Virus record (IMG/VR): IMGVR_UViG_3300025769_014365
Coordinates: 1-64,000 of that record
Strand: one strand, 5' to 3'
Origin: a virus
DNA: 64,000 bases
Below are positions 1 to 17,681 of the stretch, one piece after another. How positions within the stretch are numbered: the stretch's first letter is position 1; each line of letters opens with the position of its first letter. Position numbers and translations under genes: made by a program. The notes beneath the pieces are model-generated. The model was not told the DNA's origin. It did no database searches and worked only from the letters and a program-made list of their open reading frames with translations.

Positions 1-2349
1 TTCGACATTGAGGTGGACTTCGATCCAGATCGAGGTTACTCAACGACGGATGATCCGTTCATGCCCATAACTGCCATAAGTTGTTACATGAGCTGGACGG
101 ATCAACTGGTCACACTGGCGGTGCCACCCAAGACAATCAGCATGAAGGACGCCGAAGAGCTCACGAAGAGATTCGACAACACCATGCTGTTCGAGAAAGA
201 GAAGGACATGCTGGACGCTTTCCTACAACTTGTGGAAGACGCGGACATATTGAGCGGATGGAACTCAGAGGGTTATGATATACCCTACACCGTGGGCCGG
301 ATACAGAAAGTTTTGAGTGGAGACGACACGAGGAGATTGTGTTTCTGGGGTGAGAAGCCCAAGAAGAGGGTGTTCGAGAAATATGGTCGAGAGCAGTTGA
401 GTTTTGATCTTGTGGGCAGGGTGCACCTGGACTTGCTGGAACTGTACAGGAAATACACATACGAGGAAAGGCACAGTTTCAGACTTGATGCGATTGGAGA
501 ACATGAACTTGGTGAGAAGAAGACCGTGTATGAAGGTTCTCTTGATAATCTATACAAGAACGATTTTGGCTTGTTCATAGAATACAACAGACAGGACACG
601 GCACTGCTGGCCAAACTTGAGAAGAAATTGAAGTTCATAGAACTGGCCAACGAGATCGCACACCAGAACACCGTGCTACTACAGACCACGATGGGCGCAG
701 TGGCAGTGACGGAACAGGCCATAGTGAACGAAGCACACAGGAGAGGCATGCAGGTGCCCGGCAGGAAGTACAAGAAGGAAGGTGAGGAGAACCAACCAGC
801 CGCTGGCGCATACGTGGCCACGCCTAAGAAAGGCATACATGACTGGATCGGATCCATTGACATCAACAGTCTATATCCTAGTGTGATCAGGGCATTGAAC
901 ATGGGTCCAGAGACCATCGTGGGACAGATAAGGCCAGTGATAACTTCCGCGGAGATCAACAGGGCCAAACACGCTAAGAAGTCGTTCGCGGCCGCGTGGG
1001 ATAGCCAGTTCGGCTCATGGGAGTACCAGGCAGTGATGAAACAGGACAAGGGCACGGAGATCATAGTGGACTGGGAGGACAAGACCAGTGTGCGTATGAG
1101 TGCGGCACAACTGTATGAAGTGATTTTCGATGGCAACAACAAGTGGATGCTCAGCGCGAATGGAACAATATTCACATACGAGTATGAGGCCATAATACCA
1201 GGATTGTTGAAACGTTGGTACGCGGAGAGACAGGAGATGCAACAGAAGATGCGTGACTGTGGCGACAACGAGATAGAACGCGAGTACTGGGACAAGAGAC
1301 AGTTGGTCAAGAAGATCAACCTGAACAGTCTGTATGGAGCGATACTGAACCCAGGATGTAGATTCTTTGACATCAGGATAGGTCAGAGTGTGACACTCAC
1401 AGGTAGATGTATCACGAGACACATGGCCAGCAAGGTCAACGAAGTTGTGGCGGGCAAGTATGATCACTTGGGCGAGAGCGTGATATACGGCGATACTGAT
1501 TCCGTTTACTTCTCGGCCGCAAAGACATTGGAAAAAGAAATCGAATCAGGCGCCATACCATGGACCAAGGACAGCGTGGTGGCACTGTATGATCGTATAG
1601 CAGATGAGGTCAACGGCTCATTCAAGGCATTCATGACCCGGGCGTTCCACACTCCGAGCACAAGAGGAGAAGTTATTGCGGCGGGCAGGGAATTGGTCGC
1701 TAGTAAAGGATTATTCATCACAAAGAAGAGATATGCGGTGCTGTACTATGACAAGGAAGGTAAACGTGCGGATGTGGAAGGCAAAGAGGGCAAAATGAAA
1801 GCGATGGGGCTAGATTTGAAGAGATCGGATACCCCTGTGTTCGTGCAGGACTTCCTCAGTGATCTACTGTACATGGTGCTGACGGGCATGACAGAGAAAG
1901 AGGTGCTTGAGAAGATCAGTGAGTTCAGGGCGGAGTTCAAGGCCAGACCAGGTTGGGAGAAGGGTTCACCTAAACGTGCCAACAACATGACCAAATACAC
2001 CGAGGAAGAGAACAAGAAGGGCAAGACCAACATGCCAGGACACGTCAGGGCCAGCATGAACTGGAACAGGTGCAGGGAGATGTACGGTGACAAATACTCC
2101 ATGCCCATAACGGATGGCGCCAAGGTGATAGTATGTAAACTGAAATCTAATCCCCTAGGTTACACCAGCATAGCATACCCTGTAGACGAGATGCGTATAC
2201 CGGAATGGTTCAAGGAACTGCCGTTTGACTCAGATGCCATGGAGAGCACGATACTTGATCAAAAGATCGACAACCTCATAGGTGTGTTGGGTTGGGACGT
2301 ACAGAGCACGGAGACCACGAACACATTCAACAAACTGTTTGAATTCTAA
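1..2349 (+). CDS. polB: Family B DNA polymerase (T4 gp43-like), 5' end outside the window
   Basis: Frame open from base 1 (FDIEVDF = ExoI motif). Also GWNSEGYDIPY (ExoII), YNRQD (ExoIII), SIDINSLYPS (motif A), KINLNSLYG (motif B), YGDTDS (motif C), KKRY. Confidence 0.97.
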   Translation, partial: FDIEVDFDPDRGYSTTDDPFMPITAISCYMSWTDQLVTLAVPPKTISMKDAEELTKRFDNTMLFEKEKDMLDAFLQLVEDADILSGWNSEGYDIPYTVGRIQKVLSGDDTRRLCFWGEKPKKRVFEKYGREQLSFDLVGRVHLDLLELYRKYTYEERHSFRLDAIGEHELGEKKTVYEGSLDNLYKNDFGLFIEYNRQDTALLAKLEKKLKFIELANEIAHQNTVLLQTTMGAVAVTEQAIVNEAHRRGMQVPGRKYKKEGEENQPAAGAYVATPKKGIHDWIGSIDINSLYPSVIRALNMGPETIVGQIRPVITSAEINRAKHAKKSFAAAWDSQFGSWEYQAVMKQDKGTEIIVDWEDKTSVRMSAAQLYEVIFDGNNKWMLSANGTIFTYEYEAIIPGLLKRWYAERQEMQQKMRDCGDNEIEREYWDKRQLVKKINLNSLYGAILNPGCRFFDIRIGQSVTLTGRCITRHMASKVNEVVAGKYDHLGESVIYGDTDSVYFSAAKTLEKEIESGAIPWTKDSVVALYDRIADEVNGSFKAFMTRAFHTPSTRGEVIAAGRELVASKGLFITKKRYAVLYYDKEGKRADVEGKEGKMKAMGLDLKRSDTPVFVQDFLSDLLYMVLTGMTEKEVLEKISEFRAEFKARPGWEKGSPKRANNMTKYTEEENKKGKTNMPGHVRASMNWNRCREMYGDKYSMPITDGAKVIVCKLKSNPLGYTSIAYPVDEMRIPEWFKELPFDSDAMESTILDQKIDNLIGVLGWDVQSTETTNTFNKLFEF

Positions 2350-3185: not shown

Positions 3186-3923
3186 ATGATAGACATCTTA
3201 AAAGACATCGTTAAACACACGCATGGATTGGGATTCTTGGATCTGGTCAAGATCACTGGGGACGATAAGGAAACTACTATCGACTCAATGGCCGAAGACA
3301 GATCTGTGATCCTGCAGGGGTCTTTCCACAAACCACAACCGGAGATGACGGGTACGTTCGGAATGCCTCAGATGGGCAAACTGGACATCCACCTGAAGTG
3401 TCCGGAGTACAAGGAGAAGGCGAACATAACAGTGTTGTCCGGTGAGAGAAACGGCGCAACGGTTCCGACGGGTATCCATTTCGAGAACGAGAAGGGTGAC
3501 TTCAAGAATGACTACAGGTTCATGAACGCCGAGATCATCAACGAGAAACTCAAGACGGTCAAGTTCAAGGGCGTCAAGTGGGACGTCGAGATCGAACCTT
3601 CAGTGGCGAGTGTGCAGAGATTCAACTTCCAGGCCACAGCAAACACAGAACACAATTCATTCGTCGTGAGGACGGAGGATGGAAATCTGGTATTCACCTT
3701 CGGTGACCAAGCGTCACATGGTGGTGAGTTCGTTTTCGCAACCGACGTTAAGGGCACACTTAACAAGGGTTGGAGTTGGCCGGTGGGGCAGGTGTTACAG
3801 ATACTTAAACTTTCTGACTCAGCCAAGGTCACGTTACACTTCTCTAACGAGGGTGCGATGATGGTCACTGTTGACTCAGGACTGGGCAAGTACCAGTACA
3901 TTATACCAGCACAGGCGCAGTAA
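3186..3923 (+). CDS. Probable DNA sliding clamp / processivity factor (gp45/PCNA-like)
   Basis: 245 aa, clamp-sized, two genes after the polymerase. C-terminal GKYQYIIPA resembles the terminal strand of PCNA-type clamps. Inference; no diagnostic motif. Confidence 0.55.
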   Translation: MIDILKDIVKHTHGLGFLDLVKITGDDKETTIDSMAEDRSVILQGSFHKPQPEMTGTFGMPQMGKLDIHLKCPEYKEKANITVLSGERNGATVPTGIHFENEKGDFKNDYRFMNAEIINEKLKTVKFKGVKWDVEIEPSVASVQRFNFQATANTEHNSFVVRTEDGNLVFTFGDQASHGGEFVFATDVKGTLNKGWSWPVGQVLQILKLSDSAKVTLHFSNEGAMMVTVDSGLGKYQYIIPAQAQ

Positions 3924-5380: not shown

Positions 5381-5584
5381 ATGGTAACAAAAAGAAAAAA
5401 AAGCAAAAAACTCAAGAAACTTGAAGATGAGCACCAGTACCTTGACAAGAAGGTGGCACAACTTACCAAAGACAGGCTCAAGGACAGGAGTTCCGAGAGC
5501 AAGGAGGTGCTTACCAGATTGAAGAGGACCAAGTTGATGATCAAGGATGCGATAGCCAGGGCTAGAGCCACCTTGACAAGATAG
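5381..5584 (+). CDS. Small coiled-coil protein, DUF465/YdcH-like
   Basis: Pattern LEDEHQYLDKKV...LKRTKLMIKDAI; GGAGG RBS upstream. Confidence 0.65.
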   Translation: MVTKRKKSKKLKKLEDEHQYLDKKVAQLTKDRLKDRSSESKEVLTRLKRTKLMIKDAIARARATLTR

Positions 5585-5601
5585 CCAACACATAGTATAA
5601 T
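5573..5601 (+). promoter_or_regulatory. Consensus sigma70 promoter TTGACA-N17-TATAAT
   Basis: Perfect -35 (5573-5578) and -10 (5596-5601), 5 nt before the ATG at 5607. Confidence 0.8.
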
Positions 5602-5606
5602 AAGAC

Positions 5607-6158
5607 ATGGACAGAGATTACAAAACAGGCAAGAGTGACAGTGTAGGCGTGTTTTCAGGACTGGAGATAGAACACACACCAGCCTACGGTCTACAGACAC
5701 TTTTCCTGGCAAGGAACGATCTCACACTGGAACAGATCAAAGAACTTGCTGAAATGGTCAATGCCAAAGCGATATATTATGGCGCAAACAGATCATTCAT
5801 GTACAACCACGGACTACAACTATCGCAGATGATCAAGTTAATGGAAGCAGGTTACTACGTGACCATAGATTATCCATACTCGTTACACGATGAAGTCAAA
5901 CAGAGATTCAAATTGATATGGAAGAACGAACTGTTCATACCATTCTGCTCCATAATATTTGCCAATTCCGAAGATGACGATCAACTCTGCATCAAAGTCG
6001 ATGACGTGGACTTCAACAAAACAAATCCCGGAGTATGGACAATGAGCATGAATCATTTCAAACAATCTGCAGGCTTCACTTCGTGGAAACAATACAAACA
6101 GGATAAACCAATACAGGAGAACAAATGGATACTGAGCACCAACGAAATCAAGCACTGA
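5607..6158 (+). CDS. Hypothetical phage protein
   Basis: 183-aa ORF behind a strong promoter, overlapping the next gene. Confidence 0.7.
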   Translation: MDRDYKTGKSDSVGVFSGLEIEHTPAYGLQTLFLARNDLTLEQIKELAEMVNAKAIYYGANRSFMYNHGLQLSQMIKLMEAGYYVTIDYPYSLHDEVKQRFKLIWKNELFIPFCSIIFANSEDDDQLCIKVDDVDFNKTNPGVWTMSMNHFKQSAGFTSWKQYKQDKPIQENKWILSTNEIKH

Positions 6159-6553
6159 AGGAACAGGCCAGCAAGGCCGAAAAAATGATTTGGGTAACAT
6201 TCCAGAAGGAAGGAATGCACAAATACCCGGCGGCACTGACAGATCCCAAACTGGCCACAGGCGACGAGTACGATGTGTCGTTCCTGGGACATCCACACAG
6301 ACACATTTTCCACTTCAAGGTGGCCATCGAGGTGTTCCACGATGACAGAGACATAGAATTCATACAGTTCAAGAGATGGCTGTTGAACCTGTACAAGGAA
6401 GGCACTCTACAGAACGACTTCAAGAGTTGTGAAATGATGAGTGATGACCTATACATTGAGATAGCCAAGAGATACCCGGGCAGACGTATAGATATCAACG
6501 TCTCAGAGGACGGTGAAAATGGGTCATACGCTGTGTATGAATTGAGAGATTAA
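6125..6553 (+). CDS. T-fold QueD-like protein, probable CDG decarboxylase (DpdL-type)
   Basis: FLGHPHRHIFHF fits LxxxHRHxF. Also SCEM and C-terminal VSEDGENG typical of T-fold PTPS/QueD relatives; lacks the canonical QueD CxxxHGH. AGGAG RBS. Confidence 0.7.
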   Translation: MDTEHQRNQALKEQASKAEKMIWVTFQKEGMHKYPAALTDPKLATGDEYDVSFLGHPHRHIFHFKVAIEVFHDDRDIEFIQFKRWLLNLYKEGTLQNDFKSCEMMSDDLYIEIAKRYPGRRIDINVSEDGENGSYAVYELRD

Positions 6554-6879
6554 TGAAAGAGTTACAGTTCAAACAGAAGAGAGCGACCACTAGGATGGGA
6601 CACCTGCCCATAGAGGGTGGTGGACTGAACGCTGGCTATGACACCGTAGACGCGGTGGCCAACATCTGCACCACGGCGGGCAACCTAGGAATGAAGTACG
6701 GCAAAGATTTCATATGGGCCTACTCGGGATACAGCGATGACGAAGACATGGACGAATGTATAACTCTGTTGGTCAAGGATGACAAGTACGAATCCTTCCT
6801 ACACCTGGCACTACAGAACTCACACAGGATCAAACACACCAAAAACGGCACGGTCAAACTTACAAAGGAGAGAGCATAA
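6553..6879 (+). CDS. Hypothetical protein
   Basis: 108-aa ORF with TAATG coupling to the previous gene. Confidence 0.65.
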   Translation: MKELQFKQKRATTRMGHLPIEGGGLNAGYDTVDAVANICTTAGNLGMKYGKDFIWAYSGYSDDEDMDECITLLVKDDKYESFLHLALQNSHRIKHTKNGTVKLTKERA

Positions 6880-6883
6880 CGAC

Positions 6884-7420
6884 ATGAGAGTACCATACAC
6901 AAACTTCAAAACACGAATAGGCGATGACCAAGCGGTAGGCGGATGCGCACTGATAGGTGGAGAATGGAAGGACGTCGACACAGCGGAGATATTCGACGAC
7001 AAGAAAGTGGTAGTATTCGCACTACCAGGAGCATTCACACCAACCTGTAGTTCACAGCAACTGCCGGGCTACGAGGAGAAATACGATGAGCTCAAAGCAC
7101 TGGGCGTAGATGAAGTCTACTGTCTGAGTGTAAACGATGCTTTCGTGATGAATGCTTGGGCAAGGGATCAAAAGATCGAAAGAGTAAAAGTGCTACCAGA
7201 CGGATCAGGCGTTTTCACACAAGGAATGGGAATGTTGGTCAACAAGGACCACGTGGGTTTCGGAATGAGATCGTGGAGATATTCCATGCTGGTTGACAAC
7301 GGGGAGGTCGTTAAGGTATTCGAGGAACCAGGCAAGAACAACGCGGGTGACAACGGAGATCCTTTCGAGGTCTCAGACGCAGACACAATGATCAAGTACC
7401 TGAAAGAAAATGCCGGGTAA
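6884..7420 (+). CDS. Peroxiredoxin (Prx5/redoxin family)
   Basis: FALPGAFTPTCS, SVNDAFVM, RSWRYSM. Start moved to ATG 6884 (MRVPY), downstream of GGAG. Confidence 0.93.
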   Translation: MRVPYTNFKTRIGDDQAVGGCALIGGEWKDVDTAEIFDDKKVVVFALPGAFTPTCSSQQLPGYEEKYDELKALGVDEVYCLSVNDAFVMNAWARDQKIERVKVLPDGSGVFTQGMGMLVNKDHVGFGMRSWRYSMLVDNGEVVKVFEEPGKNNAGDNGDPFEVSDADTMIKYLKENAG

Positions 7421-7601
7421 TTGGGACGGGAAATCTAGACCCAGCAACACCAACTATCGCTCGAACTACGACGACATTTTCAAGAAGAAATCCTGTCCCT
7501 GTGGCAGGTCTCCCACTGGTAAGTGCATAGGTTGGCACGGATTGACAGAAGAGCAATATCAAGTTAAACTAGCAGAGTGGAAGGAAACAAATGCTGATTA
7601 G
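7410..7601 (+). CDS. Small protein with CDGSH-like Cys3His motif
   Basis: CPCGRSPTGKCIGWH; overlaps both neighbours. Confidence 0.6.
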   Translation: MPGNWDGKSRPSNTNYRSNYDDIFKKKSCPCGRSPTGKCIGWHGLTEEQYQVKLAEWKETNAD

Positions 7602-7899
7602 ATTAATATTCGAACCCGAATCCAACGTCAATGTGAACCATGACAGAATGTTCGAGTTTTATTCAGAGAACTACCTAAGCGATTTCAATACCAAATGGGG
7701 AGGCACCATAGTGATGGACAACTTCGTGAAGAAACATTACAGACAGGAACCCTGCTACCAGAGGTACATAGAAAGTTCACAAGGCGATCAAAACACTCTA
7801 AATAAGATCATGGAGTACGTCAAAGCAAATCCAATGGCAGGATACACCACACACATATACGCAAACCCAGAAGGGGGAAATGAGGTCAAACAACTATGA
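7591..7899 (+). CDS. Hypothetical protein
   Basis: 102-aa ORF packed in the operon. Confidence 0.6.
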   Translation: MLIRLIFEPESNVNVNHDRMFEFYSENYLSDFNTKWGGTIVMDNFVKKHYRQEPCYQRYIESSQGDQNTLNKIMEYVKANPMAGYTTHIYANPEGGNEVKQL

Positions 7900-9065
7900 A
7901 GATATTTTACATGGGACTAGAGCCCTACGAAGGCAGATACACACTACAACTTCAGGATTGGACGGAGAGAGCATATAAGAAAAGAGGAATAGATTATGTG
8001 GTTGTCCCAGGTACTACAATCGATGACACGAAAGCGATCAGTGTTGGACAGGTGCTGGACGCACACGGCAGGTCATACTTCGGCATGAGCCAGATGATGA
8101 ACCTAGTACAGATGATGAGGAACGGTGAGGTCACCAACAAAGACATCATATTCTTCGAGGACATGTTCCAACCGGGCATGGAGTCACTACCGTACATCCT
8201 GAACCAAGTGGAAGACAAACACAGACCAACCATATACCTGAGATGTCTGGCACAGGCCATAGATCCGGATGACTTTGTACACGTATGGGGCATGAGCAAA
8301 TGGATGAGCATGTATGAACAGATGTGTAACGAAATTCCAAATGTAAACATACTGGCAACCAATGAGGAGATGGTGGCACATATGCGTATTGCAAATTGGT
8401 CAGCACCCATATACAACATATCAGGACTATCATTCGGTAAGGAAGAGGTTCAAAACAGGGTGGAGAACATCAAACCATTTATTGAAAGAAGCCAACGAGT
8501 GGTGTTTGGCGCCAGATGGGATCAAGAGAAACAGCCACAATTCTACATGGACCTAGCAACGGAATACAAGAAGAAACATCCAGACGTGGAATTCGCCATA
8601 TGTCAAGGTGGACCATTAAGGTCAAATAACGAATTTTATGTGCAAGAGGCCAGACACCTGGCCAAGGAAGGCATACTGACCATACACGAGAACCTTAAGA
8701 AGAACGAGTACTATGAAATATTGGCTGATTCGAGGGTGATGTTCAACTGCGCATTACAGGACTGGGTTTCAAACACAGTAAGTGAAGCGGACTCACTAGG
8801 ATGCAACACTTTATTCCCCGCATACAGATCATTCCCGGAAACATTCGCAAACGACCACACCAGGATGTACATTCCGTGGTCACAGCAGGACGCGATTGAA
8901 AAACTAGAAGTACTATTAAGCAAACCATCCCCTAGTATAGGTCGGATTTCTGATTGGACCAACGGTACCATAGACAGGATGATTGACATTATGACAGGCA
9001 AGGGAGAACAATGGAGAAGAGATGGAAGACACTACAGGACACCAGTATCAGAATCCAAGTATTAA
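7896..9065 (+). CDS. GT-B fold (GT4-like) glycosyltransferase
   Basis: GARWDQEKQP, EYYEILADSRV and NTVSEADSLGC...P match the glycosyl transferase group 1 C-terminal domain. Confidence 0.8.
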   Translation: MKIFYMGLEPYEGRYTLQLQDWTERAYKKRGIDYVVVPGTTIDDTKAISVGQVLDAHGRSYFGMSQMMNLVQMMRNGEVTNKDIIFFEDMFQPGMESLPYILNQVEDKHRPTIYLRCLAQAIDPDDFVHVWGMSKWMSMYEQMCNEIPNVNILATNEEMVAHMRIANWSAPIYNISGLSFGKEEVQNRVENIKPFIERSQRVVFGARWDQEKQPQFYMDLATEYKKKHPDVEFAICQGGPLRSNNEFYVQEARHLAKEGILTIHENLKKNEYYEILADSRVMFNCALQDWVSNTVSEADSLGCNTLFPAYRSFPETFANDHTRMYIPWSQQDAIEKLEVLLSKPSPSIGRISDWTNGTIDRMIDIMTGKGEQWRRDGRHYRTPVSESKY

Positions 9066-10059
9066 AGGTTCAAGCAAAGCAGTATTGGTCACCGGCGGGG
9101 CAGGATACGTGGGTTCACACACCTGTAAGTTCCTAGCCAAGAACGGGTACACACCAGTTGTCATAGACAGGGACACTAAGACCAAATTCAAACCAGCCCA
9201 GTTTGGGCCGATATTCGATATAAACCTACCACAAGAGATAGAGAGGTTAGATGAGATCATAAAAAGGTTCAACATAACAAGTTGTATACACTTCGCGGGC
9301 AGTGCCTCCGTGGCGGAATCTGTGAAGGACCCATCCGAATACTACAAGAACAACGTGATAGCGACTGTCGTGCTACTGGACAAGTTGATCGAATGCGGAG
9401 TCAATACGTTTGTCTACAGTTCCAGCGCCGCGACATATGGAGATCCAGGAATGAGATTGTGTAAGGAATCAGATTGGCCTAAACCCATAAGTGCATACGG
9501 AGCCAGTAAACTGATGATGGAAATGATCTGTAAAGATTATCAGAGAGCATACGGATTGAGCAGTGTTGGATTAAGGTATTTCAACGCCGCGGGAGCGGAT
9601 CCAGAAGCAGAAGTGGGAGAACTGAGGGAGAAGGAAACTCACATAATACCATTGGCTATAGATGCTGTAAAACAAGGTAAGAAATTCAAAATGTTTGGTG
9701 ACCAATATCCCACAGAGGATGGAACCTGTGTGAGAGATTACGTCCATGTGATGGATCTGGCCGACGCACATGTAAAGGCATTGAATTACGCATCAGACAA
9801 CGAGGTTGCTGAAGTTTTCAATCTCGGATCAGGAGCACCCGCTTCGAATCGACAACTGTTAGATGCGGTACAGAAATACGCAGGAGAGATGACTATAGAA
9901 GTGCATCCAAATCGTCCAGGAGACCCCGCATACCTAGTAGCCGACATAACAAAGGTTAAAAAAATATTAGGATGGGAGCCAATACAGAGTTCCATTGACA
10001 ACGTGGTGGCCACTGCTGTACAATGGTATAACAAGACACATAAAAAGGAAATACAATAA
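9022..10059 (+). CDS. galE: UDP-glucose 4-epimerase
   Basis: VLVTGGAGYVGSH, HFAG, SSSAATYG, YGASK, LRYFNAAGA, DGTCVRDYVHV. Confidence 0.93.
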   Translation: MEDTTGHQYQNPSIKGSSKAVLVTGGAGYVGSHTCKFLAKNGYTPVVIDRDTKTKFKPAQFGPIFDINLPQEIERLDEIIKRFNITSCIHFAGSASVAESVKDPSEYYKNNVIATVVLLDKLIECGVNTFVYSSSAATYGDPGMRLCKESDWPKPISAYGASKLMMEMICKDYQRAYGLSSVGLRYFNAAGADPEAEVGELREKETHIIPLAIDAVKQGKKFKMFGDQYPTEDGTCVRDYVHVMDLADAHVKALNYASDNEVAEVFNLGSGAPASNRQLLDAVQKYAGEMTIEVHPNRPGDPAYLVADITKVKKILGWEPIQSSIDNVVATAVQWYNKTHKKEIQ

Positions 10060-10772
10060 TGAGCGAAGACATATTAAAAGACAGTTGGATGCCGGATGAG
10101 GCAGTCAGCAAGAGGATCAGGGACAGGATCAAGAAGGCGGGCAAGAGGTTCCACGCCAATGACAACATCGCCGACTACATCGAGGACGGCGAGATTGACG
10201 AGTTACAGGCAGAGGTACAGGAGAAACTACAGGGTGTGTTGGACAGCCTGGTCATAGACACGGAGAATGATCACAACACGCAGGAAACCGCAAAACGTGT
10301 GGCCAAGATGTACATCAGAGAGACGTTCGGTGGCAGGTTTAAACCAATGCCGAGGGTCACAAGTTTCCCCAACATGGGTTACAAGAGCATGTATACATCG
10401 GGACCGATATCGATAAGATCCACGTGTGCGCACCATTTCCAGAACATAGTGGGCAAGGCATGGGTTGGCATCATTCCCAACGGTGAGGTCATTGGACTGA
10501 GTAAGTTCAATAGGATAGTGCATCACATAGTGGAGAGACCACAGATACAGGAAGAGATGACCACACAGATAGCGGAGGAACTGAAGAAGTACGCCAAGAC
10601 CGAGAACATAGCGGTTGTGGTCAAGGCAGAACACCACTGCATGACACACAGAGGTGTGAGGGAACACGAATCAGACATGACAACAGCGATAATGCTAGGT
10701 GCGTTCAAAGACGATCCAGCAACCAGAGATGAATTCTACAAGATCTGCATGAGCATGAAGGGCCATGGGTAA
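10059..10772 (+). CDS. folE: GTP cyclohydrolase I
   Basis: ETAKRVAKM, STCAHH, GLSKFNR, RPQIQE, AEHHCMTHRGV. Confidence 0.96.
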   Translation: MSEDILKDSWMPDEAVSKRIRDRIKKAGKRFHANDNIADYIEDGEIDELQAEVQEKLQGVLDSLVIDTENDHNTQETAKRVAKMYIRETFGGRFKPMPRVTSFPNMGYKSMYTSGPISIRSTCAHHFQNIVGKAWVGIIPNGEVIGLSKFNRIVHHIVERPQIQEEMTTQIAEELKKYAKTENIAVVVKAEHHCMTHRGVREHESDMTTAIMLGAFKDDPATRDEFYKICMSMKGHG

Positions 10773-11013
10773 GGAAGAGAAGAAAACGTCGGACGGAGTC
10801 TGGCGCATGGAGGACTGGGACATTAGCGATGTCAACACAGGATCCGCGTCAGAGATGCTGACCATAGATGGCATGAGTTACAGTTTTGGTGAACTAGAGT
10901 TTGAAACTGATCAAAAATTAAGAGAAAAGTACCCAGCGTTAAAAGACGCATGGGATCACTACAACAACGTAAAGAAGATGTGTGAAGCAAAGGAGCAAGA
11001 AGATGAGAATTAA
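10765..11013 (+). CDS. Hypothetical protein
   Basis: 82-aa ORF overlapping folE and guaC; KYPALKDAWDHY. Confidence 0.6.
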   Translation: MGKEEKKTSDGVWRMEDWDISDVNTGSASEMLTIDGMSYSFGELEFETDQKLREKYPALKDAWDHYNNVKKMCEAKEQEDEN

Positions 11014-12052
11014 GGAGGACCTAAAACTAAATTTCGACGATGTGCTGATGGAACCCAAGCGCTCCACTTTGAGTTCTAGGAGAGATGTGGACATGACGAG
11101 GAAATTTAAGTTCCGGAATTCCGGCAAGATAATGGAATTCACTCCAATATTCGCCAGTAACATGGACGGTGTTGGTACATTCTCCATGGCCAAGGTGCTA
11201 CAGGAACACAAGATGATGACTGTTATAACAAAATCAACCACACTGGATCAATGGAAGGAAGCAGTGGGATCAGGCTTGAGACTACAGAGTGTAAGCGTCT
11301 GTACAGGCACCAACAAGATATGGGATCCAGAAGCGGAAGACTATGCGAGGATGCAGGACGTGTTGAGGAGTTTCCCAGATGTCAAGATGATCACTATAGA
11401 TGTTGCTAACGCATACCACCAGAATTTTGTGGATTTCATCAAGATGGTCCGAGACGAATACCCAGACAAGGTCATAGTGGCGGGCAACGTGGTCACACCA
11501 GAGATGGTGGAGGAACTGATCATTAACGGTGCTGACATGGTCAAGATCGGAATAGGACCAGGATCAGTGTGTACCACGAGGACGATGACCGGCATAGGTG
11601 TGCCACAGTTCTCGGCTATTGTGGAATGCGCTGATGCGGCCAACGGCGTTGATGGACACATAATGGCGGATGGCGGATGTGTGTGGCCCGGAGACATAGC
11701 CAAGGCGTTCGGTGGGGGAGCACACGCTGTCATGATAGGTGGAATGCTGGCGGGACACGATGAGTCAGAACAACCAGTTGTGGACGGCAAGGTTGAATTT
11801 TATGGCATGAGCTCAGACAGGGCTCGTGAGAAACACGGCAAGAGAAAAGACGGATACAGGGGCAACGAGGGAAGGTGGATCAGCCTGCCACACAGGGGAC
11901 CTGTGAATCCAACAGTGGAGGACATATTAGGCGGAGTGAGATCAGCGGCCACTTACATCGGTGCCCGTAGACTCAAAGATATGCCCAAGTGTGCCACTTT
12001 CGTTAGGGTCAACAACAACATCAACAGGGTCTATGAGCGTTACACCAAATAG
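11003..12052 (+). CDS. guaC: GMP reductase
   Basis: KLNFDDVLMEPKRSTLSSR, NMDGVG, IDVANAY, catalytic GIGPGSVCTTR, FYGMSS; no CBS domains. Start at ATG 11003 after AGGAG. Confidence 0.92.
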   Translation: MRIKEDLKLNFDDVLMEPKRSTLSSRRDVDMTRKFKFRNSGKIMEFTPIFASNMDGVGTFSMAKVLQEHKMMTVITKSTTLDQWKEAVGSGLRLQSVSVCTGTNKIWDPEAEDYARMQDVLRSFPDVKMITIDVANAYHQNFVDFIKMVRDEYPDKVIVAGNVVTPEMVEELIINGADMVKIGIGPGSVCTTRTMTGIGVPQFSAIVECADAANGVDGHIMADGGCVWPGDIAKAFGGGAHAVMIGGMLAGHDESEQPVVDGKVEFYGMSSDRAREKHGKRKDGYRGNEGRWISLPHRGPVNPTVEDILGGVRSAATYIGARRLKDMPKCATFVRVNNNINRVYERYTK

Positions 12053-12374
12053 AGTAGACGAGATAGAGGACAAGATCGAGGCACTTGAAGACAGCCTCAG
12101 TTCGGTGCGCAAGGTCACACCCATACACGATTCCACGTGGTACGTGAAGTGGATCTCTGTTGCGTTCGTTTGCTGTGCGGTGCTGTGTAGGTCAGTCGAA
12201 GAGATACCCAAAATATTTGACGTGTCATTCTCCATAGTGGGCACGGCCGGATGGTTATGGGTGGGATTCAAATGGCATGATAGAGCACTTATAATATTAA
12301 ACACAATTCTACTGGCCATGTTAGTTTCTGGAGCATTTAGATACTACCTTACGTACTTCGGATGGATACAATGA
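12033..12374 (+). CDS. Small membrane protein (about 3 TM)
   Basis: Hydrophobic segments WYVKWISVAFV, GWLWVGFKWHDRALIILN; in-frame ATG at 12033. Confidence 0.65.
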   Translation: MSVTPNRVDEIEDKIEALEDSLSSVRKVTPIHDSTWYVKWISVAFVCCAVLCRSVEEIPKIFDVSFSIVGTAGWLWVGFKWHDRALIILNTILLAMLVSGAFRYYLTYFGWIQ

Positions 12375-12835
12375 CGGAAGAAGTCAACAAGAGCTATTTC
12401 ACCACAGGTCAGATGCGCAATGCACTGATACAGATTGAAGACCAGATGGTGCACAGCAACTGGATGCCAAGCGTTATACTGGGCATTAACAGGGGTGGAT
12501 GTATTCCTGGCGTGTATCTCTCACACAGGCTGAACGTGCCACACGAAGCACTTGACGTGAGATTGCGAGACCATACATCCAAACCCGACCTATCGGTGTT
12601 AGAGAAGGTGTTCGCTTTCCAGAAGAAAATACTGATCATAGATGACATCAACGACTCTGGTGCGACATTCCAATATATCCTAGACAATTTTGGCAAGCCA
12701 GACGACAGGATCCGTTTTGCGGCCTTGATCAACAACAAACCGTCTCCGGTCAAGATGGACTACCATGGTTACCAGATCAACAAGGACGAGGTGCCCGCAT
12801 GGATAGTGTTTCCATGGGAAGATTGGGACAAATAA
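12371..12835 (+). CDS. Type I phosphoribosyltransferase (xanthine/guanine PRT-like)
   Basis: GINRGG, PRPP-binding ILIIDDINDSGAT, C-terminal WIVFPWE typical of Gpt; ATGA overlap. Confidence 0.88.
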   Translation: MTEEVNKSYFTTGQMRNALIQIEDQMVHSNWMPSVILGINRGGCIPGVYLSHRLNVPHEALDVRLRDHTSKPDLSVLEKVFAFQKKILIIDDINDSGATFQYILDNFGKPDDRIRFAALINNKPSPVKMDYHGYQINKDEVPAWIVFPWEDWDK

Positions 12836-13732: not shown

Positions 13733-14383
13733 ATGTTAAAATCACTACTGGCAGGCGTTGACAAGACGCTTGTAAGAAATCTAGTAATTCTACACACACT
13801 TGTTATCGCTGTGTCGAACTACCTAGTTACGATCAGATTTGATCTGTTCCCTGGTGCGGACCTTCCGTTGTTTGGATCGTTTCCACTTGCGGCGGCGGCA
13901 TTCACATTTCCGATCGTAGTAGTCGCAACTGACTTGACGGTCAGATTGGTCGGCAAGGAAGCGGGAAGGGCCGTCGTAGCAATGGCGATCATTCCAGCCA
14001 TCGTTGCATCAGTACTGGTACTGTTGGCACTGGGTGATCCACACGCGTATAGGGTTGGATTCGCATCAGGTACGGCATACGCGATTGGTACCATGCTTGA
14101 CGTGTACGTTTTCCAAGCGATCAGAGAAAGATCTGACAATTGGTGGGCGGCACCGGCACTATCGACCATCGCGGCGAACATAATCGACACATACTCGTTC
14201 TTTTACGTGGCGTTCGCAGGATCGTTGGATGCGGAAGGTAACCTATCGTGGATCGGTGAGAACTGGCACGTGGTTGCGCAGAACAACACACTGACCAAGA
14301 TCGTGGTCGGTCTGATAGTGTTCCTACCAGCGTATGGAATACTGTTGAACAGACTGCAGGTCATTGGCAAGAAGAAAAAATAG
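13733..14383 (+). CDS. yhhQ: YhhQ/VUT family queuosine-precursor (preQ0/preQ1) transporter
   Basis: HTLVIAVSNYLV, FTFP..ATDLTVR, AYAIG..LDVYVF, WWAAP..ST, DT..FF.VAF and FLPAYG.LLN all follow the E. coli YhhQ pattern. Confidence 0.88.
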   Translation: MLKSLLAGVDKTLVRNLVILHTLVIAVSNYLVTIRFDLFPGADLPLFGSFPLAAAAFTFPIVVVATDLTVRLVGKEAGRAVVAMAIIPAIVASVLVLLALGDPHAYRVGFASGTAYAIGTMLDVYVFQAIRERSDNWWAAPALSTIAANIIDTYSFFYVAFAGSLDAEGNLSWIGENWHVVAQNNTLTKIVVGLIVFLPAYGILLNRLQVIGKKKK

Positions 14384-14467: not shown

Positions 14468-14863
14468 ATGGGAAATAAGGCAGGAAAGATTTGGGGAGAA
14501 ACAGAACTGATACTAGCGAACAGTTCATGTGAGTTCCACAGGATAGATTACAAGAAGGGTGGTGTTTGTTCCAAACACAAACACGAATGGAAATGGAACG
14601 GCTTCTACGTGGTGTCGGGGCAAATGAAGATTAGGGTTTGGGCGAATGACTACGACCTCGTGGACGAGACCATACTTAACCCAGGCGACTTTACAGCCGT
14701 CAAACCAGGACAATATCACACGTTCGAAGGACTCGAGGACGGCGTGGCTTTTGAACTTTACTGGGCCAATTTCTCACACAACGACATAGTGAGGGAGAAC
14801 ACTGGTTACATGAAGGAGACGGACGGCAAGGTGGTAAGGTTAGACAAGAGCAAGAAGAAATAG
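14468..14863 (+). CDS. Cupin-domain protein
   Basis: CSKHKH..K...FYVVSG and PGQYHTF cupin motifs. Confidence 0.85.
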   Translation: MGNKAGKIWGETELILANSSCEFHRIDYKKGGVCSKHKHEWKWNGFYVVSGQMKIRVWANDYDLVDETILNPGDFTAVKPGQYHTFEGLEDGVAFELYWANFSHNDIVRENTGYMKETDGKVVRLDKSKKK

Positions 14864-14864
14864 T

Positions 14865-15287
14865 GTGAACATCTACACCATATACGCCGACCACAAAGAC
14901 AACATCACAGCACATGACTTCGTGTACAAGATGAAATTGTTCCTAGATAAGTTAGTCGATCACAGGAAAATGTCCACTTACAGGATCACTAGGATGAAAC
15001 TGGGTTTCAGGTCAATGGATTTACCTGAATTCAGGATTGACATGGAGTTTGACACTATGCAGGCTCTTGATGATGCTATGACTATTACCATTGCTGACAA
15101 AAAAGTAGATCAGGTACATGTTGGATTCAATCAGTATGTGAATACCGATACCATACAACACTTTTTGTACAGAGATTTTCCAGATGATCTAAATAAGCCA
15201 AAGTTGACAGAACAGCAAGACCAGTTTACAATAGATGAGATAGTCAAGGCAACAAAAAATATAAAACCAGAATTATGGAAAGAATAA
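14865..15287 (+). CDS. Hypothetical protein (DUF6614-like)
   Basis: GTG start; YRITRMKLGFRS..LPEFRIDMEF pattern recalled from this family. Confidence 0.5.
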   Translation: MNIYTIYADHKDNITAHDFVYKMKLFLDKLVDHRKMSTYRITRMKLGFRSMDLPEFRIDMEFDTMQALDDAMTITIADKKVDQVHVGFNQYVNTDTIQHFLYRDFPDDLNKPKLTEQQDQFTIDEIVKATKNIKPELWKE

Positions 15288-16162
15288 GGTATTCGGAAAT
15301 ATTCTACAGTGTACAAGGCGAGGGGAGGTTCGTTGGAGTGCCTTCGGTGTTCTTTAGGACGTTTGGCTGTAATTTCCACTGCCATGGCTTTGGACAGGGT
15401 AGAGATAGATCAAAATGGATCCAACCCGAAGACATGCCCTACAACACACAGGACATCACAAACATCAAACACATATCCGAACTACCGGTTGTGAACATAG
15501 GTTGCGACGCTTCGGCCAGCTGGAGCGCTAGATACAAGGACCTAGTGGATTGGGATCCTGTAGACGAGATAGCAAAAAAGGTCACAGCACACACACCAGA
15601 GAACCGATGGACCTGTGCGAACGGACAGGATGTTCATTTCATAATCACGGGCGGTGAACCCATGATGTGGCAGAGACAGATCGAGGCACTGATCAGGCAA
15701 CCAGAATTCAACGACTTAAAGAACATCACCGTAGAGACCAACTGCACACAGGCATGGAAGGACAACTTCGACAAGTTCATGCATGGACTGACCGCGGGCG
15801 ATTACACTAAGGAACCTGTACACGTGACATGGTCAACATCACCAAAACTGAGCATATCAGGCGAGGCATGGGAGAAGGCCATAAGAGCGGATGTGGCGAG
15901 GCAATACTCACTGATACCCAACACACACCTATACTTCAAGTTCGTGGTGCAGGACGAACAGGATCTTAAGGAAGTGGATTCGGCAAGGGAGGCATACTCT
16001 AAGGCGGGGGTCACTGGAGACATATATCTCATGGCTGTAGGGGCCACACAGGAAGGTCAATCTAAGACATCATCACAGGTGGCAGAGATGGCCATGAAGA
16101 ACGGCTACAAATACTCCCCAAGACTGCACGTGGACCTGTTCGGAAATAAATGGGGTACATAA
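15275..16162 (+). CDS. queE: 7-carboxy-7-deazaguanine synthase (radical SAM)
   Basis: SEIFYSVQGEG..VGVPSVFFRTFGCN, ITGGEP, VETN, TSPKL, FKFVV, SPRLHV..GN. Cysteine motif is Cx3Cx40C. Confidence 0.92.
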   Translation: MERIRYSEIFYSVQGEGRFVGVPSVFFRTFGCNFHCHGFGQGRDRSKWIQPEDMPYNTQDITNIKHISELPVVNIGCDASASWSARYKDLVDWDPVDEIAKKVTAHTPENRWTCANGQDVHFIITGGEPMMWQRQIEALIRQPEFNDLKNITVETNCTQAWKDNFDKFMHGLTAGDYTKEPVHVTWSTSPKLSISGEAWEKAIRADVARQYSLIPNTHLYFKFVVQDEQDLKEVDSAREAYSKAGVTGDIYLMAVGATQEGQSKTSSQVAEMAMKNGYKYSPRLHVDLFGNKWGT

Positions 16163-16244: not shown

Positions 16245-17681
16245 ATGGAACTTGCTATATTAATGGCGGGTATCGTCTATGGCTTGATCATTGGCCTGAT
16301 ACCAGCCGCGGGAGCAACAACAGGTCTTATCACACTGTTTGGATTCATGCCCTACTTCGTGGGCGACCCCTACCTGGGCGTGATATTCTGTGTGGCAGTC
16401 GTTGCTTCATCAACAACCGGTGATTCATTCAGTGGTGTGCTACTCGGCATACCCGGAGCCAACTCTGCGGCCGCAACTATGGTGGATGGCTTCCCCATGG
16501 CCAAAAACGGAGAGGCAACACGAGCATTATCAGCCGCCATAACCTCCAGCACTGCCAACGGATTGTTTTGGGGATCACTTACATTTTTATTCTTGCCTTG
16601 GTACACCAAAGTTGTGATGTACATGGGCGTACCTGAACTGTGGGCGCTGGTGCTGTTGGCATTTGTGACTGTTGGATTCGTTTCAACTAGGAAATATATT
16701 AGAAGCACACTAGCCATAGTGTTAGGAGTGACAATAGGACTGGTAGGTGTTGATGTCAATAATGTTCCTCGTTTCACCCTGGGATGGAGATATCTCGAGG
16801 ACGGTGTACAAATATTACCTTTCGTGGCAGGACTGTTCGCCATACCTGAACTGTGGGATGGATGGTTCAACAGAAAAAAGACAACAACAATACGGGCGGA
16901 ACACGGCAGTTGGCATGATCTTAAACAGGGAATGAAAGACACACTTATCTGTTGGAAGGACAGCCTCAGAGGAGGGGCAATAGGTTCTTTTATTGGATTG
17001 TTACCAGGACTGGGTGGAGCAATGGCAGACTGGTTGGCATACGGTGCCACGGTTGCGGCCAATCCCAAGGAGAAGTTTGGTGTGGGCAACGTCAAAGGCG
17101 TGATAGGTGCCGAGGGGGCCAACAACGCACAGAAGGCCTCGTCATTCATTCCAACCGTGCTGTTTGGCATACCGGGTGCCAGTTTCGCCGCGATACTGAT
17201 GGGACTTTTCTTATACCTGGGCATAGACCTAGGATCACCTGACACATTCCACGACGACAGATTATTTGACAGCATGACATTTGCTTTCTTGCTGGGAACG
17301 ATAATTACCGCCGTCATCTGTTATGGACTGGCATATTTCGCAGGTTGGGTCACACGTATTCCATACGTGTATTACTTTCCTTTCATACTTGCTGTGATAA
17401 TCTGGGCCACGCTACAGTACACCGGTGGTTGGGAGGACCTCGCGGTGCTCTTCGCATTCTCGATCTTGGGAGTGCTGTGTAAGAAATTCCAAGTCAGCAG
17501 GCCAGCACTGCTGATCGGATTCCTGTTGAGTGACAGGATCTACAATCTCACTTACCAACTAACAACGCTCCACACGGTGACGGATCTGATCACAAGACCG
17601 ATCTTTATTTCCATAATGATCTGTGTTATACTGTTGCTGTACTGGGGCATAACAAAAAGGAGCAGAATAGACTATGCTTAA
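16245..17681 (+). CDS. tctA: Tripartite tricarboxylate transporter, large permease TctA
   Basis: Multi-TM; GLIPAAG, LLGIPGANSAAAT..DGFPMAKNG, GLLPGLGG, EGANNA, FGIPG. Confidence 0.92.
   Translation: MELAILMAGIVYGLIIGLIPAAGATTGLITLFGFMPYFVGDPYLGVIFCVAVVASSTTGDSFSGVLLGIPGANSAAATMVDGFPMAKNGEATRALSAAITSSTANGLFWGSLTFLFLPWYTKVVMYMGVPELWALVLLAFVTVGFVSTRKYIRSTLAIVLGVTIGLVGVDVNNVPRFTLGWRYLEDGVQILPFVAGLFAIPELWDGWFNRKKTTTIRAEHGSWHDLKQGMKDTLICWKDSLRGGAIGSFIGLLPGLGGAMADWLAYGATVAANPKEKFGVGNVKGVIGAEGANNAQKASSFIPTVLFGIPGASFAAILMGLFLYLGIDLGSPDTFHDDRLFDSMTFAFLLGTIITAVICYGLAYFAGWVTRIPYVYYFPFILAVIIWATLQYTGGWEDLAVLFAFSILGVLCKKFQVSRPALLIGFLLSDRIYNLTYQLTTLHTVTDLITRPIFISIMICVILLLYWGITKRSRIDYA

Follow-up and report, generated by a model that had tools for sequence, protein, structure and literature searches.

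The first 64,000 nucleotides of the IMG/VR virus record IMGVR_UViG_3300025769_014365, hereafter the window, carry a gene for a glycosyltransferase (GT) that is overlapped at its end by a gene for a UDP-glucose 4-epimerase (GalE), and both lie inside a cluster of genes predicted to make 7-deazaguanine and to place it in DNA. The simplest role that we can give to a conserved nucleotide-sugar transferase with an epimerase of its own is the transfer of a hexose onto a deazaguanine-type base; we propose, in a judgement balanced evenly between acceptance and doubt, that this dedicated pair glycosylates such a base, which would end as hexosyl-7-deazaguanine in the phage DNA. The contig that begins with the window is 96 kb long and has a CheckV completeness of 27%, implying a genome of about 350 kb; its source is an uncultured marine jumbo phage of about that size.

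The evidence that carries this proposal is the linkage of the GT to deazaguanine genes. In a collection of 50,697 phage records, homologs of the GT were found in 18 records and homologs of the DpdL-like protein of the cluster in 28; all of the former were among the latter, and in 18/18 the GT lay no more than 3 kb from the DpdL-like gene. The cultured phages carrying the GT are BUCT-ZZ01, Phosso, 11 PA5oct-like phages, ACP17, the Xanthomonas phages BUDD and X1, and BCSR5. The genes are arranged as DpdA-like, GT, DpdL-like in PA5oct and ACP17, as GT, DpdA, DpdL in BUDD, as DpdL-like, GT and then FolE in Phosso, and as DpdL-like, GT in the Synechococcus cyanophage BUCT-ZZ01; the arrangements in the cultured phages also include the order DpdL, GT, DpdA. 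In distant IMG/VR members (L099-L102) the GT sits with DpdL-like, FolE and QueE genes, and in L099 and L100 its start is overlapped by 4 nt by the DpdL-like gene; for a further distant member of the family, P0236, no viral locus was recovered.

The same association was seen among the closer relatives of the window, a marine clade that we sampled as 80 IMG/VR loci and in which the order is polymerase, clamp-like protein, DpdA-like protein, 183-aa protein, DpdL-like protein, GT, GalE, FolE. The DpdL-like gene is upstream of the GT in 77/78 of these loci and the DpdA-like gene in 73/73. Over 71 divergent loci the median identity was 68% for the GT and 67% for the DpdL-like protein, the best conserved in the module, compared to 63% for the polymerase, 41% for both the DpdA-like protein and FolE, and 39% for GalE. 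Moreover, the GT is paired with at least two very different types of DpdA, and a family hidden Markov model (HMM) of the DpdA-like protein of the window does not detect the DpdA enzymes of ACP17, BUDD and BCSR5. A preliminary description of the window, made from the sequence, had asked whether the GT family tracks with DpdA/DpdL genes, and it does so in every lineage examined. Mere inheritance of the linkage is made less plausible by the reshuffled gene orders, by the case in the Kyanoviridae and by the fact that no phage record has the GT without a DpdL-like gene, and we consider it highly probable that the GT is a functional part of a DpdL/DpdA module without QueC.

As for the GT itself, it scores 19.9 bits against the Pfam family PF00534, below the gathering cut-off of 26.4; 34 of the 41 members of its family match PF00534 at E <= 1 (best 4.5e-10), and 6 of the 41 also match the N-terminal Glyco_transf_4 domain. 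The AlphaFold model obtained with the 41-member alignment shows a GT-B fold made of two Rossmann-like domains, with a predicted local distance difference test score (pLDDT) of 94.6, and VIA-align superposes it on GT4 structures with Z of 24-27 over about 310-345 residues. The matches include sucrose-phosphate synthase (SPS, Z 27.1), BshA (25.3), PimA (24.4) and the UDP-glucose:tetrahydrobiopterin alpha-glucosyltransferase BGluT (23.5), while Foldseek gives about 1e-11 to GlgM, MshA and BshA; SenB and LmbT are further matches. These neighbours are mostly of the retaining GT4 type, which identifies a real glycosyltransferase but leaves its acceptor unspecified by the fold. The alignment of the family shows R207 and K212 invariant in the motif SRxDxEKQP and D289-x7-E297 nearly invariant, positions which we take to be those that bind the nucleotide-sugar donor in GT4 enzymes. 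On the model and these residues, the protein is probably a functional, retaining, GT4-like nucleotide-sugar glycosyltransferase. The analogy with the glucosyltransferases of T-even phages drawn in the preliminary description survives as a likeness of fold and at that level only: the DNA-bound T4 alpha-glucosyltransferase (AGT, 1y6f) aligns with Z 21.4 over 321 residues, lower than SPS, BshA and BGluT. No match to the GT was found in PHROGs and PADLOC, and the Pfam matches listed for the 41 members (25 of 27 families) contain neither the T4 glucosyltransferase families nor the GTDC1-type N-terminal family. The GT matches more than 8000 protein clusters at 90% identity; a search of genome contigs with the single protein returned only two contigs of metagenome-assembled genomes, both phage-like in look. 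In BUCT-ZZ01, a 447-aa hypothetical protein in the deazaguanine cluster (9004-10347) matches the GT-family HMM weakly (1.8e-4), and the cluster may encode two GT-B-like proteins, this one and the real GT homolog.

The partner of the GT is a genuine GalE. It scores 341.6 bits against the NCBIfam equivalog TIGR01179 (cut-off 262.3), which was passed by 9/9 GalE proteins tested from related loci, and it can be aligned over its whole length with GalE enzymes of known structure, the best match in the PDB reaching 1e-82, with the NAD motif GGAGYVGSH and the YxxxK motif (YGASK) visible in the structure alignments. The overlap of 44 nt between the GT and galE genes described earlier is exact (9022..9065) and identical in about ten close relatives; the ATG at 9022 is preceded by GGAG at a distance of 5 nt and is the sole ATG, GTG or TTG 5' of the GxxGxxG motif that keeps the first strand intact. 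The TAATG coupling of galE to folE was likewise borne out, the ATG of folE at 10059 sharing one base with the TAA of galE, as was the position of the pair between the DpdL-like gene upstream and FolE and the QueE-like gene downstream. In the marine clade, galE starts no more than 100 nt from the GT stop in 65/74 loci with enough downstream sequence, 47 of them with an overlap of the two genes; this coupling exceeds chance. Clustered at 50% identity, the GalE proteins form 8 groups and the GT proteins a single one, from which it appears that selection maintains a GalE after the GT. The GT of the marine clade being locked to a real GalE, a galactose-type UDP-sugar is a reasonable donor. The 'gatekeeper' position of GalE, which we take to be the equivalent of Y299 in E. 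coli and C307 in the human enzyme, is a Tyr in the window (GDPAYLVAD), like in T. brucei GalE, and varies widely across the clade; we draw no firm conclusion on the donor from it.

The module in which the GT and GalE are set can be predicted with some detail. The 482-aa product of the DpdA-like gene was modelled with a pLDDT of 88.4, and its best 50 Foldseek matches in the PDB are all tRNA-guanine transglycosylases (TGT), with E about 5e-9; the motifs LGDSGGFQ and FDCASP are conserved and a feature match in the Atlas falls on TGT-like clusters. By hhalign it matches, with 92% probability, the likely DpdA of ACP17, a protein of 424 aa whose gene lies just 5' of that of the GT. The Pfam TGT family (PF01702) had no match in the contig or in five relatives, and the profile of the DpdA-like family had none among PDB sequences, the TGT being found by the fold search only. 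From its model, this protein is likely a TGT-fold transglycosylase of the DpdA family, with DNA as its presumed target. Its homologs in relatives measure 480-570 aa; in the protein of the window, residues 370-460 or so form a long helical extension at the C-terminus, and it may belong to a DpdA subfamily that has not been described before.

The DpdL-like protein, which like the DpdA-like one has no Pfam match, carries LGHPHRHIF, which fits the motif LxxxHRHxF that replaces CxxxHGH, and its residues H32, L54, H58, R59, H60 and F62 are invariant in 21 homologs; it is 31% identical to the DpdL of phiST and 57% to the ACP17 homolog. It has been reported that LxxxHRHxF defines DpdL, proposed to decarboxylate 7-carboxy-7-deazaguanine (CDG) to 7-deazaguanine (DG) (Cui et al. 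2023, PMC10516641). The QueE-like protein clusters with the annotated QueE of ACP17, BCSR5, phiST and PA5oct; it is 33-47% identical to the proteins in the same position in most relatives, among them some with about 90% identity in their other genes, so that QueE types may have been exchanged within the clade. QueD was not found in the 96-kb contig, that is in about 27% of the genome, and is present in three relatives, complete ones included, whereas for QueC the contig has no match and the PP-loop matches of the complete relatives all stay under the threshold. As judged from gene content, the module is a predicted 7-deazaguanine set without QueC, composed of FolE, QueD, QueE, a DpdL-type protein and a DpdA-type transglycosylase; since QueC is missing and a DpdL-type protein is present, the predicted base is plain 7-deazaguanine. 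A further member may be the 183-aa protein, whose family HMM matches ACP17 at 6233-6718 (4.5e-40), just upstream of DpdA, and BCSR5 weakly. No homolog was found in the examined flanks of the DpdL phages without GT, namely phiST, RHph_I1_18 and Ahp1, and this protein may be a second partner that accompanies the GT.

A route to hydroxymethylated pyrimidines was looked for as well. The preliminary description had noted no dCMP/dUMP hydroxymethylase, and this holds beyond the window: PF00303 (ThyA and the dCMP/dUMP hydroxymethylases), PF12851 (TET/JBP) and PF00145 (C5 methylases) are absent from the whole contig and from two relatives that are 99% and 100% complete.

Putting these elements together, in the marine jumbo-phage clade the phage GalE would convert host UDP-glucose into UDP-galactose for the GT; the GT would add the hexose to the deazaguanine-type base, most probably once DpdA has placed that base in the DNA, and the DNA of the virion would then carry hexosyl-7-deazaguanine in place of some or all guanines. 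That the sugar is present in virion DNA is a claim that we rate at, or a little under, an even balance. That hexosyl-7-deazaguanine occurs both in the marine clade, with galactose as the hexose, and in PA5oct, ACP17, Phosso, BUDD, X1, BCSR5 and BUCT-ZZ01 is offered more tentatively, as slightly more doubtful than not. Of the earlier suggestion that the GT sugar-modifies the deazapurine, the linkage to the module, the real GalE and the lack of a hydroxymethyl-pyrimidine route are upheld, and deazapurine or DNA as the acceptor stays at the level of a proposal. Two reports fit an extra step in the pathway: the DNA of PA5oct resists restriction enzymes with G-containing sites (PMC12191111), and dpdL and dpdA of ACP17 gave no 2'-deoxy-7-deazaguanosine (dDG) when expressed in E. 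coli (PMC10516641).

On the other hand, several observations weigh against a sugar on the base. The main difficulty is chemical, in that 7-deazaguanine and CDG offer neither a hydroxyl nor a side-chain amine as acceptor. A sugar could be attached only through N2, as a carboxylate ester or by C-glycosylation, and we know of none of these in DNA; for DG, which has no O or N side chain, unprecedented chemistry might be required, such as C-glycosylation of the pyrrole or N2-glycosylation in the duplex. The folds closest to the GT are those of small-molecule enzymes (SPS, BshA, MshA, GlgM, SenB, BGluT), and T4 AGT is no nearer to it than many small-molecule GT4 enzymes. The GT is acidic, with an isoelectric point (pI) of 5.5 overall and 5.0 in the N-terminal domain; this counts for little because the DpdA-like protein is acidic too, and the pI was set aside as an uninformative guide to DNA binding. 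Some of the lineages with the GT are related jumbo phages, so that part of the linkage is inherited and the cases are not all independent. No GalE adjoins the GT in PA5oct, ACP17, Phosso, BUDD, BCSR5 and BUCT-ZZ01, and a galactose-type donor would thus be a feature of the marine clade and not of the GT family; the galactose-type sugar suggested earlier is retained for that clade, where the GT is tied to a real GalE, and does not extend to the clusters of the cultured phages. Finally, phiST has a DpdL, no GT homolog was detected in it in the search of the phage collection, and its DNA carries plain dDG (PMC10516641); phiST making dDG without the GT, the enzyme is not needed for dDG as such. Vibrio phage VP1 likewise has all-dDG DNA.

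A free base or a pterin-like intermediate as the acceptor is the main rival to hexosyl-7-deazaguanine in DNA. In that case the substrate of the GT would be one of the free small molecules that the pathway yields, for instance CDG, DG or a pterin intermediate, and the DNA would not contain the sugar, one possibility being a transient glycosyl ester that activates the carboxylate of CDG where QueC is missing, and another a glycosylated pterin or deazapurine metabolite. This would agree with the small-molecule GT4 enzymes being the best folds, among them BGluT, the substrate of which is likewise derived through FolE, and with the T-fold protein, proposed to act on the free base, being the tightest gene partner of the GT. 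The very different DpdA types that the GT accompanies, and its acidic N-terminal domain with many invariant Asp, Glu and aromatic residues, point in the same direction. By contrast, the GT adjoins or overlaps the DpdA gene in PA5oct, ACP17, BUDD and BCSR5, a dedicated GalE suggests that sugar is used stoichiometrically, no enzyme that removes or uses a glycosyl ester is evident, and phiST produces dDG without any GT. We consider a free small-molecule acceptor unlikely.

That the GT modifies a target unrelated to the pathway (a protein of the phage or the host, for instance, or a glycan of the host envelope), its position in the module being historical, is in our opinion distinctly improbable. 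Several homologs are labelled 'glycosyltransferase involved in cell wall biosynthesis' by the Joint Genome Institute (JGI), GT4 enzymes commonly build surface glycans, and GT and epimerase genes are frequent auxiliary genes of phages (PMC7824862). However, the GT is found in deazaguanine clusters in 18/18 phage records and in all the distant loci examined, in spite of the rearranged order, the scanned neighbours of the GT match no polysaccharide-assembly family (flippase, polymerase), and the GT surpasses the DNA polymerase in conservation, something not usually seen in genes for surface glycans.

The TGT-fold enzyme and the GT could also act on tRNA and produce a glycosylated queuosine-like base, as the transferases QTGAL and QTMAN do in animals; the products, galQ and manQ, exist in eukaryotic tRNA, and the window encodes a transporter of the YhhQ type for queuosine precursors. 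Yet the polymerase and RNase H flank the module, no tRNA genes are present in the 64-kb window, no QueC is present in the contig (QueA, QueG and QueF were not searched for), the DNA of related DpdL phages is fully substituted with dDG and that of PA5oct resists G-site enzymes, and we regard a tRNA target as very improbable. Glycosylation of a hydroxymethyl-pyrimidine in DNA in the T-even style, for which the fold likeness to T4 AGT (Z 21.4) could speak, is the least credible of all, given the absence of PF00303, PF12851 and PF00145 from the contig and the nearly complete and complete relatives, and of a T4 glucosyltransferase family from the listed Pfam matches.

The features of the locus are collected in Table 1.

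Table 1. Features of the window around the GT and galE genes (positions are those of the window).
Feature	Position	Strand	Basis
Family-B DNA polymerase, start of the replication module	13-2349	+	PF00136 5e-37; phrog_262 7e-185
245-aa conserved protein behind the polymerase, possibly a sliding clamp	3186-3923	+	phrog_12062
Divergent TGT-fold transglycosylase, DpdA-like, 482 aa	3923-5371	+	Structure model, Foldseek, motifs
Sigma-70-like promoter, perfect match (TTGACA, 17 nt, TATAAT), 5' of the 183-aa gene	5573-5601	+	Consensus match only
183-aa protein, weak Pfam SUKH-1 match only	5607-6158	+	Conserved with the module in the marine clade and ACP17
DpdL-type T-fold protein, QueD paralog, 142 aa	6125-6553	+	LGHPHRHIF motif
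Redoxin/peroxiredoxin	6779-7420		PF08534 1.4e-29
102-aa open reading frame (ORF), overlaps the GT start as ATGA; close relatives only	7591-7899	+	ORF list
GT4-like GT-B glycosyltransferase, 389 aa, stop TAA at 9063-9065	7896-9065	+	
UDP-glucose 4-epimerase GalE, 345 aa	9022-10059	+	TIGR01179
GTP cyclohydrolase I (FolE), step one of the deazaguanine pathway	10059-10772	+	PF01227 2e-47
GMP reductase/IMP dehydrogenase-family enzyme	10982-12052	+	PF00478 2.4e-66
Purine phosphoribosyltransferase	12362-12835	+	PF00156 8.8e-12
YhhQ/Vut_1-family transporter (family taking up queuosine precursors)	13733-14383	+	PF02592 3.8e-21
QueE-like radical SAM protein	15275-16162	+	Weak Pfam Fer4_12 and Radical_SAM; clustering
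TctA-family tripartite tricarboxylate transporter subunit, directly after the QueE-like gene	16245-17681		PF01970 2e-93

The + strand carries every gene from 1 to about 32 kb of the window, and the deazaguanine module is located between the polymerase and RNase H. The best tblastn matches of the polymerase are to jumbo phages, e.g., Sinorhizobium phage Phosso, Atu_ph07 and the Rak2-like group, and the homologs of the 245-aa protein behind it are annotated as 'sliding clamp beta' in Phosso vs 'structural protein' in PA5oct; megablast of the region 7500-12100 against phage sequences gave no match. A consensus scan showed no terminator-like site on the + strand between the promoter at 5573-5601 and 15331, and GT, galE and folE could therefore be co-transcribed. 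This phage and its closest relatives are alone in having the redoxin gene and three small ORFs as an insertion behind the DpdL-like gene and ahead of the GT; in most relatives, less than about 500 nt separates the two genes.

Downstream of folE, the GMP-reductase-family enzyme, the phosphoribosyltransferase and the YhhQ-type transporter share one block (10982-12835 and 13733-14383); a homolog of the phosphoribosyltransferase is annotated as xanthine-guanine phosphoribosyltransferase in the BUCT-ZZ01 cluster, and the PA5oct cluster has a phosphoribosyltransferase too. This block might recycle to GTP, for use by FolE, the guanine released by DpdA; another possibility is a toyocamycin-like route to deazapurine nucleotides. 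A version of the latter in which the phage has no DpdA and makes the nucleotide by means of the phosphoribosyltransferase and the GMP reductase was dropped, the 482-aa protein having a TGT fold. A cupin (14468-14863) considered as a hydroxylase that creates the acceptor group was also discarded, being conserved in the closest relatives only.

To our knowledge, natural glycosylations of DNA are all on pyrimidines, i.e., glucosyl- and arabinosyl-hydroxymethylcytosine and base J, and the known 7-deazaguanine bases of DNA all carry small groups at C7; in the full-text literature we found no description of a glycosylated deazaguanine in DNA. If hexosyl-7-deazaguanine is indeed made, it would be the first example, among all genomes, of a purine-type base that bears a sugar, and a sugar on a deazapurine would represent a new class of DNA hypermodification. 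The GT family being very common in the ocean, this could be among the more abundant of the DNA chemistries that have not been measured. Such a base would bear on which restriction enzymes, type IV nucleases, END nucleases and Dag-type glycosylases are escaped or provoked, on a possible bias of sequencing and PCR against such DNA in marine viromes, and on the failure of the reconstitution with DpdL and DpdA of ACP17. The question lends itself to direct testing, as the GT is present in phages that are in culture.

Among the known systems, the closest to the one described here is the dDG system of phiST (DpdL/DpdA3; PMC10516641), with which it shares FolE, QueE, a T-fold protein with LxxxHRHxF, a divergent TGT-fold transglycosylase and the absence of QueC, as well as QueD, found here in complete relatives. 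However, phiST is without this GT family and without GalE, which are integral to the module in the window, and the DpdA-like protein here is of a 482-aa subfamily that is missed by the Pfam TGT family and matches the likely DpdA of ACP17 at the profile level only. The T4 enzymes AGT and BGT (the beta-glucosyltransferase) have in common with the GT the GT-B fold, a UDP-sugar donor and an early or replication gene context, but they show no relation to it as a sequence family, no hydroxymethylase accompanies the GT, and its acceptor would be a purine analogue.

Other parallels concern sugars on related heterocycles. BGluT of Synechococcus PCC 7942 (PDB 5zer) has a similar GT4-like fold (Z 23.5), and FolE and a T-fold enzyme produce its acceptor, a 2-amino-4-oxo heterocycle, from GTP; unlike the GT, with which it shares 11% identity, it transfers the sugar to a hydroxyl on the side chain of a pterin, and it has no linkage to DpdA or QueE. 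In galQ and manQ, made by QTGAL and QTMAN, a hexose is carried by a 7-deazaguanine derivative of animal tRNA, UDP-Gal being one of the donors; there, the hydroxyl is supplied by the cyclopentenediol of queuosine in tRNA, whereas the context here is DNA replication. No Q-specific gene was found here, QueC being the only one searched for, and the GT-B fold of the GT makes it not QTGAL-like, as QTGAL (B3GNTL1) is of the GT-A type. Finally, in huimycin and dapiramicin, although these are secondary metabolites of actinomycetes built on free bases and not on DNA, a base of the preQ0 type has its 2-amino group glycosylated by a GT.

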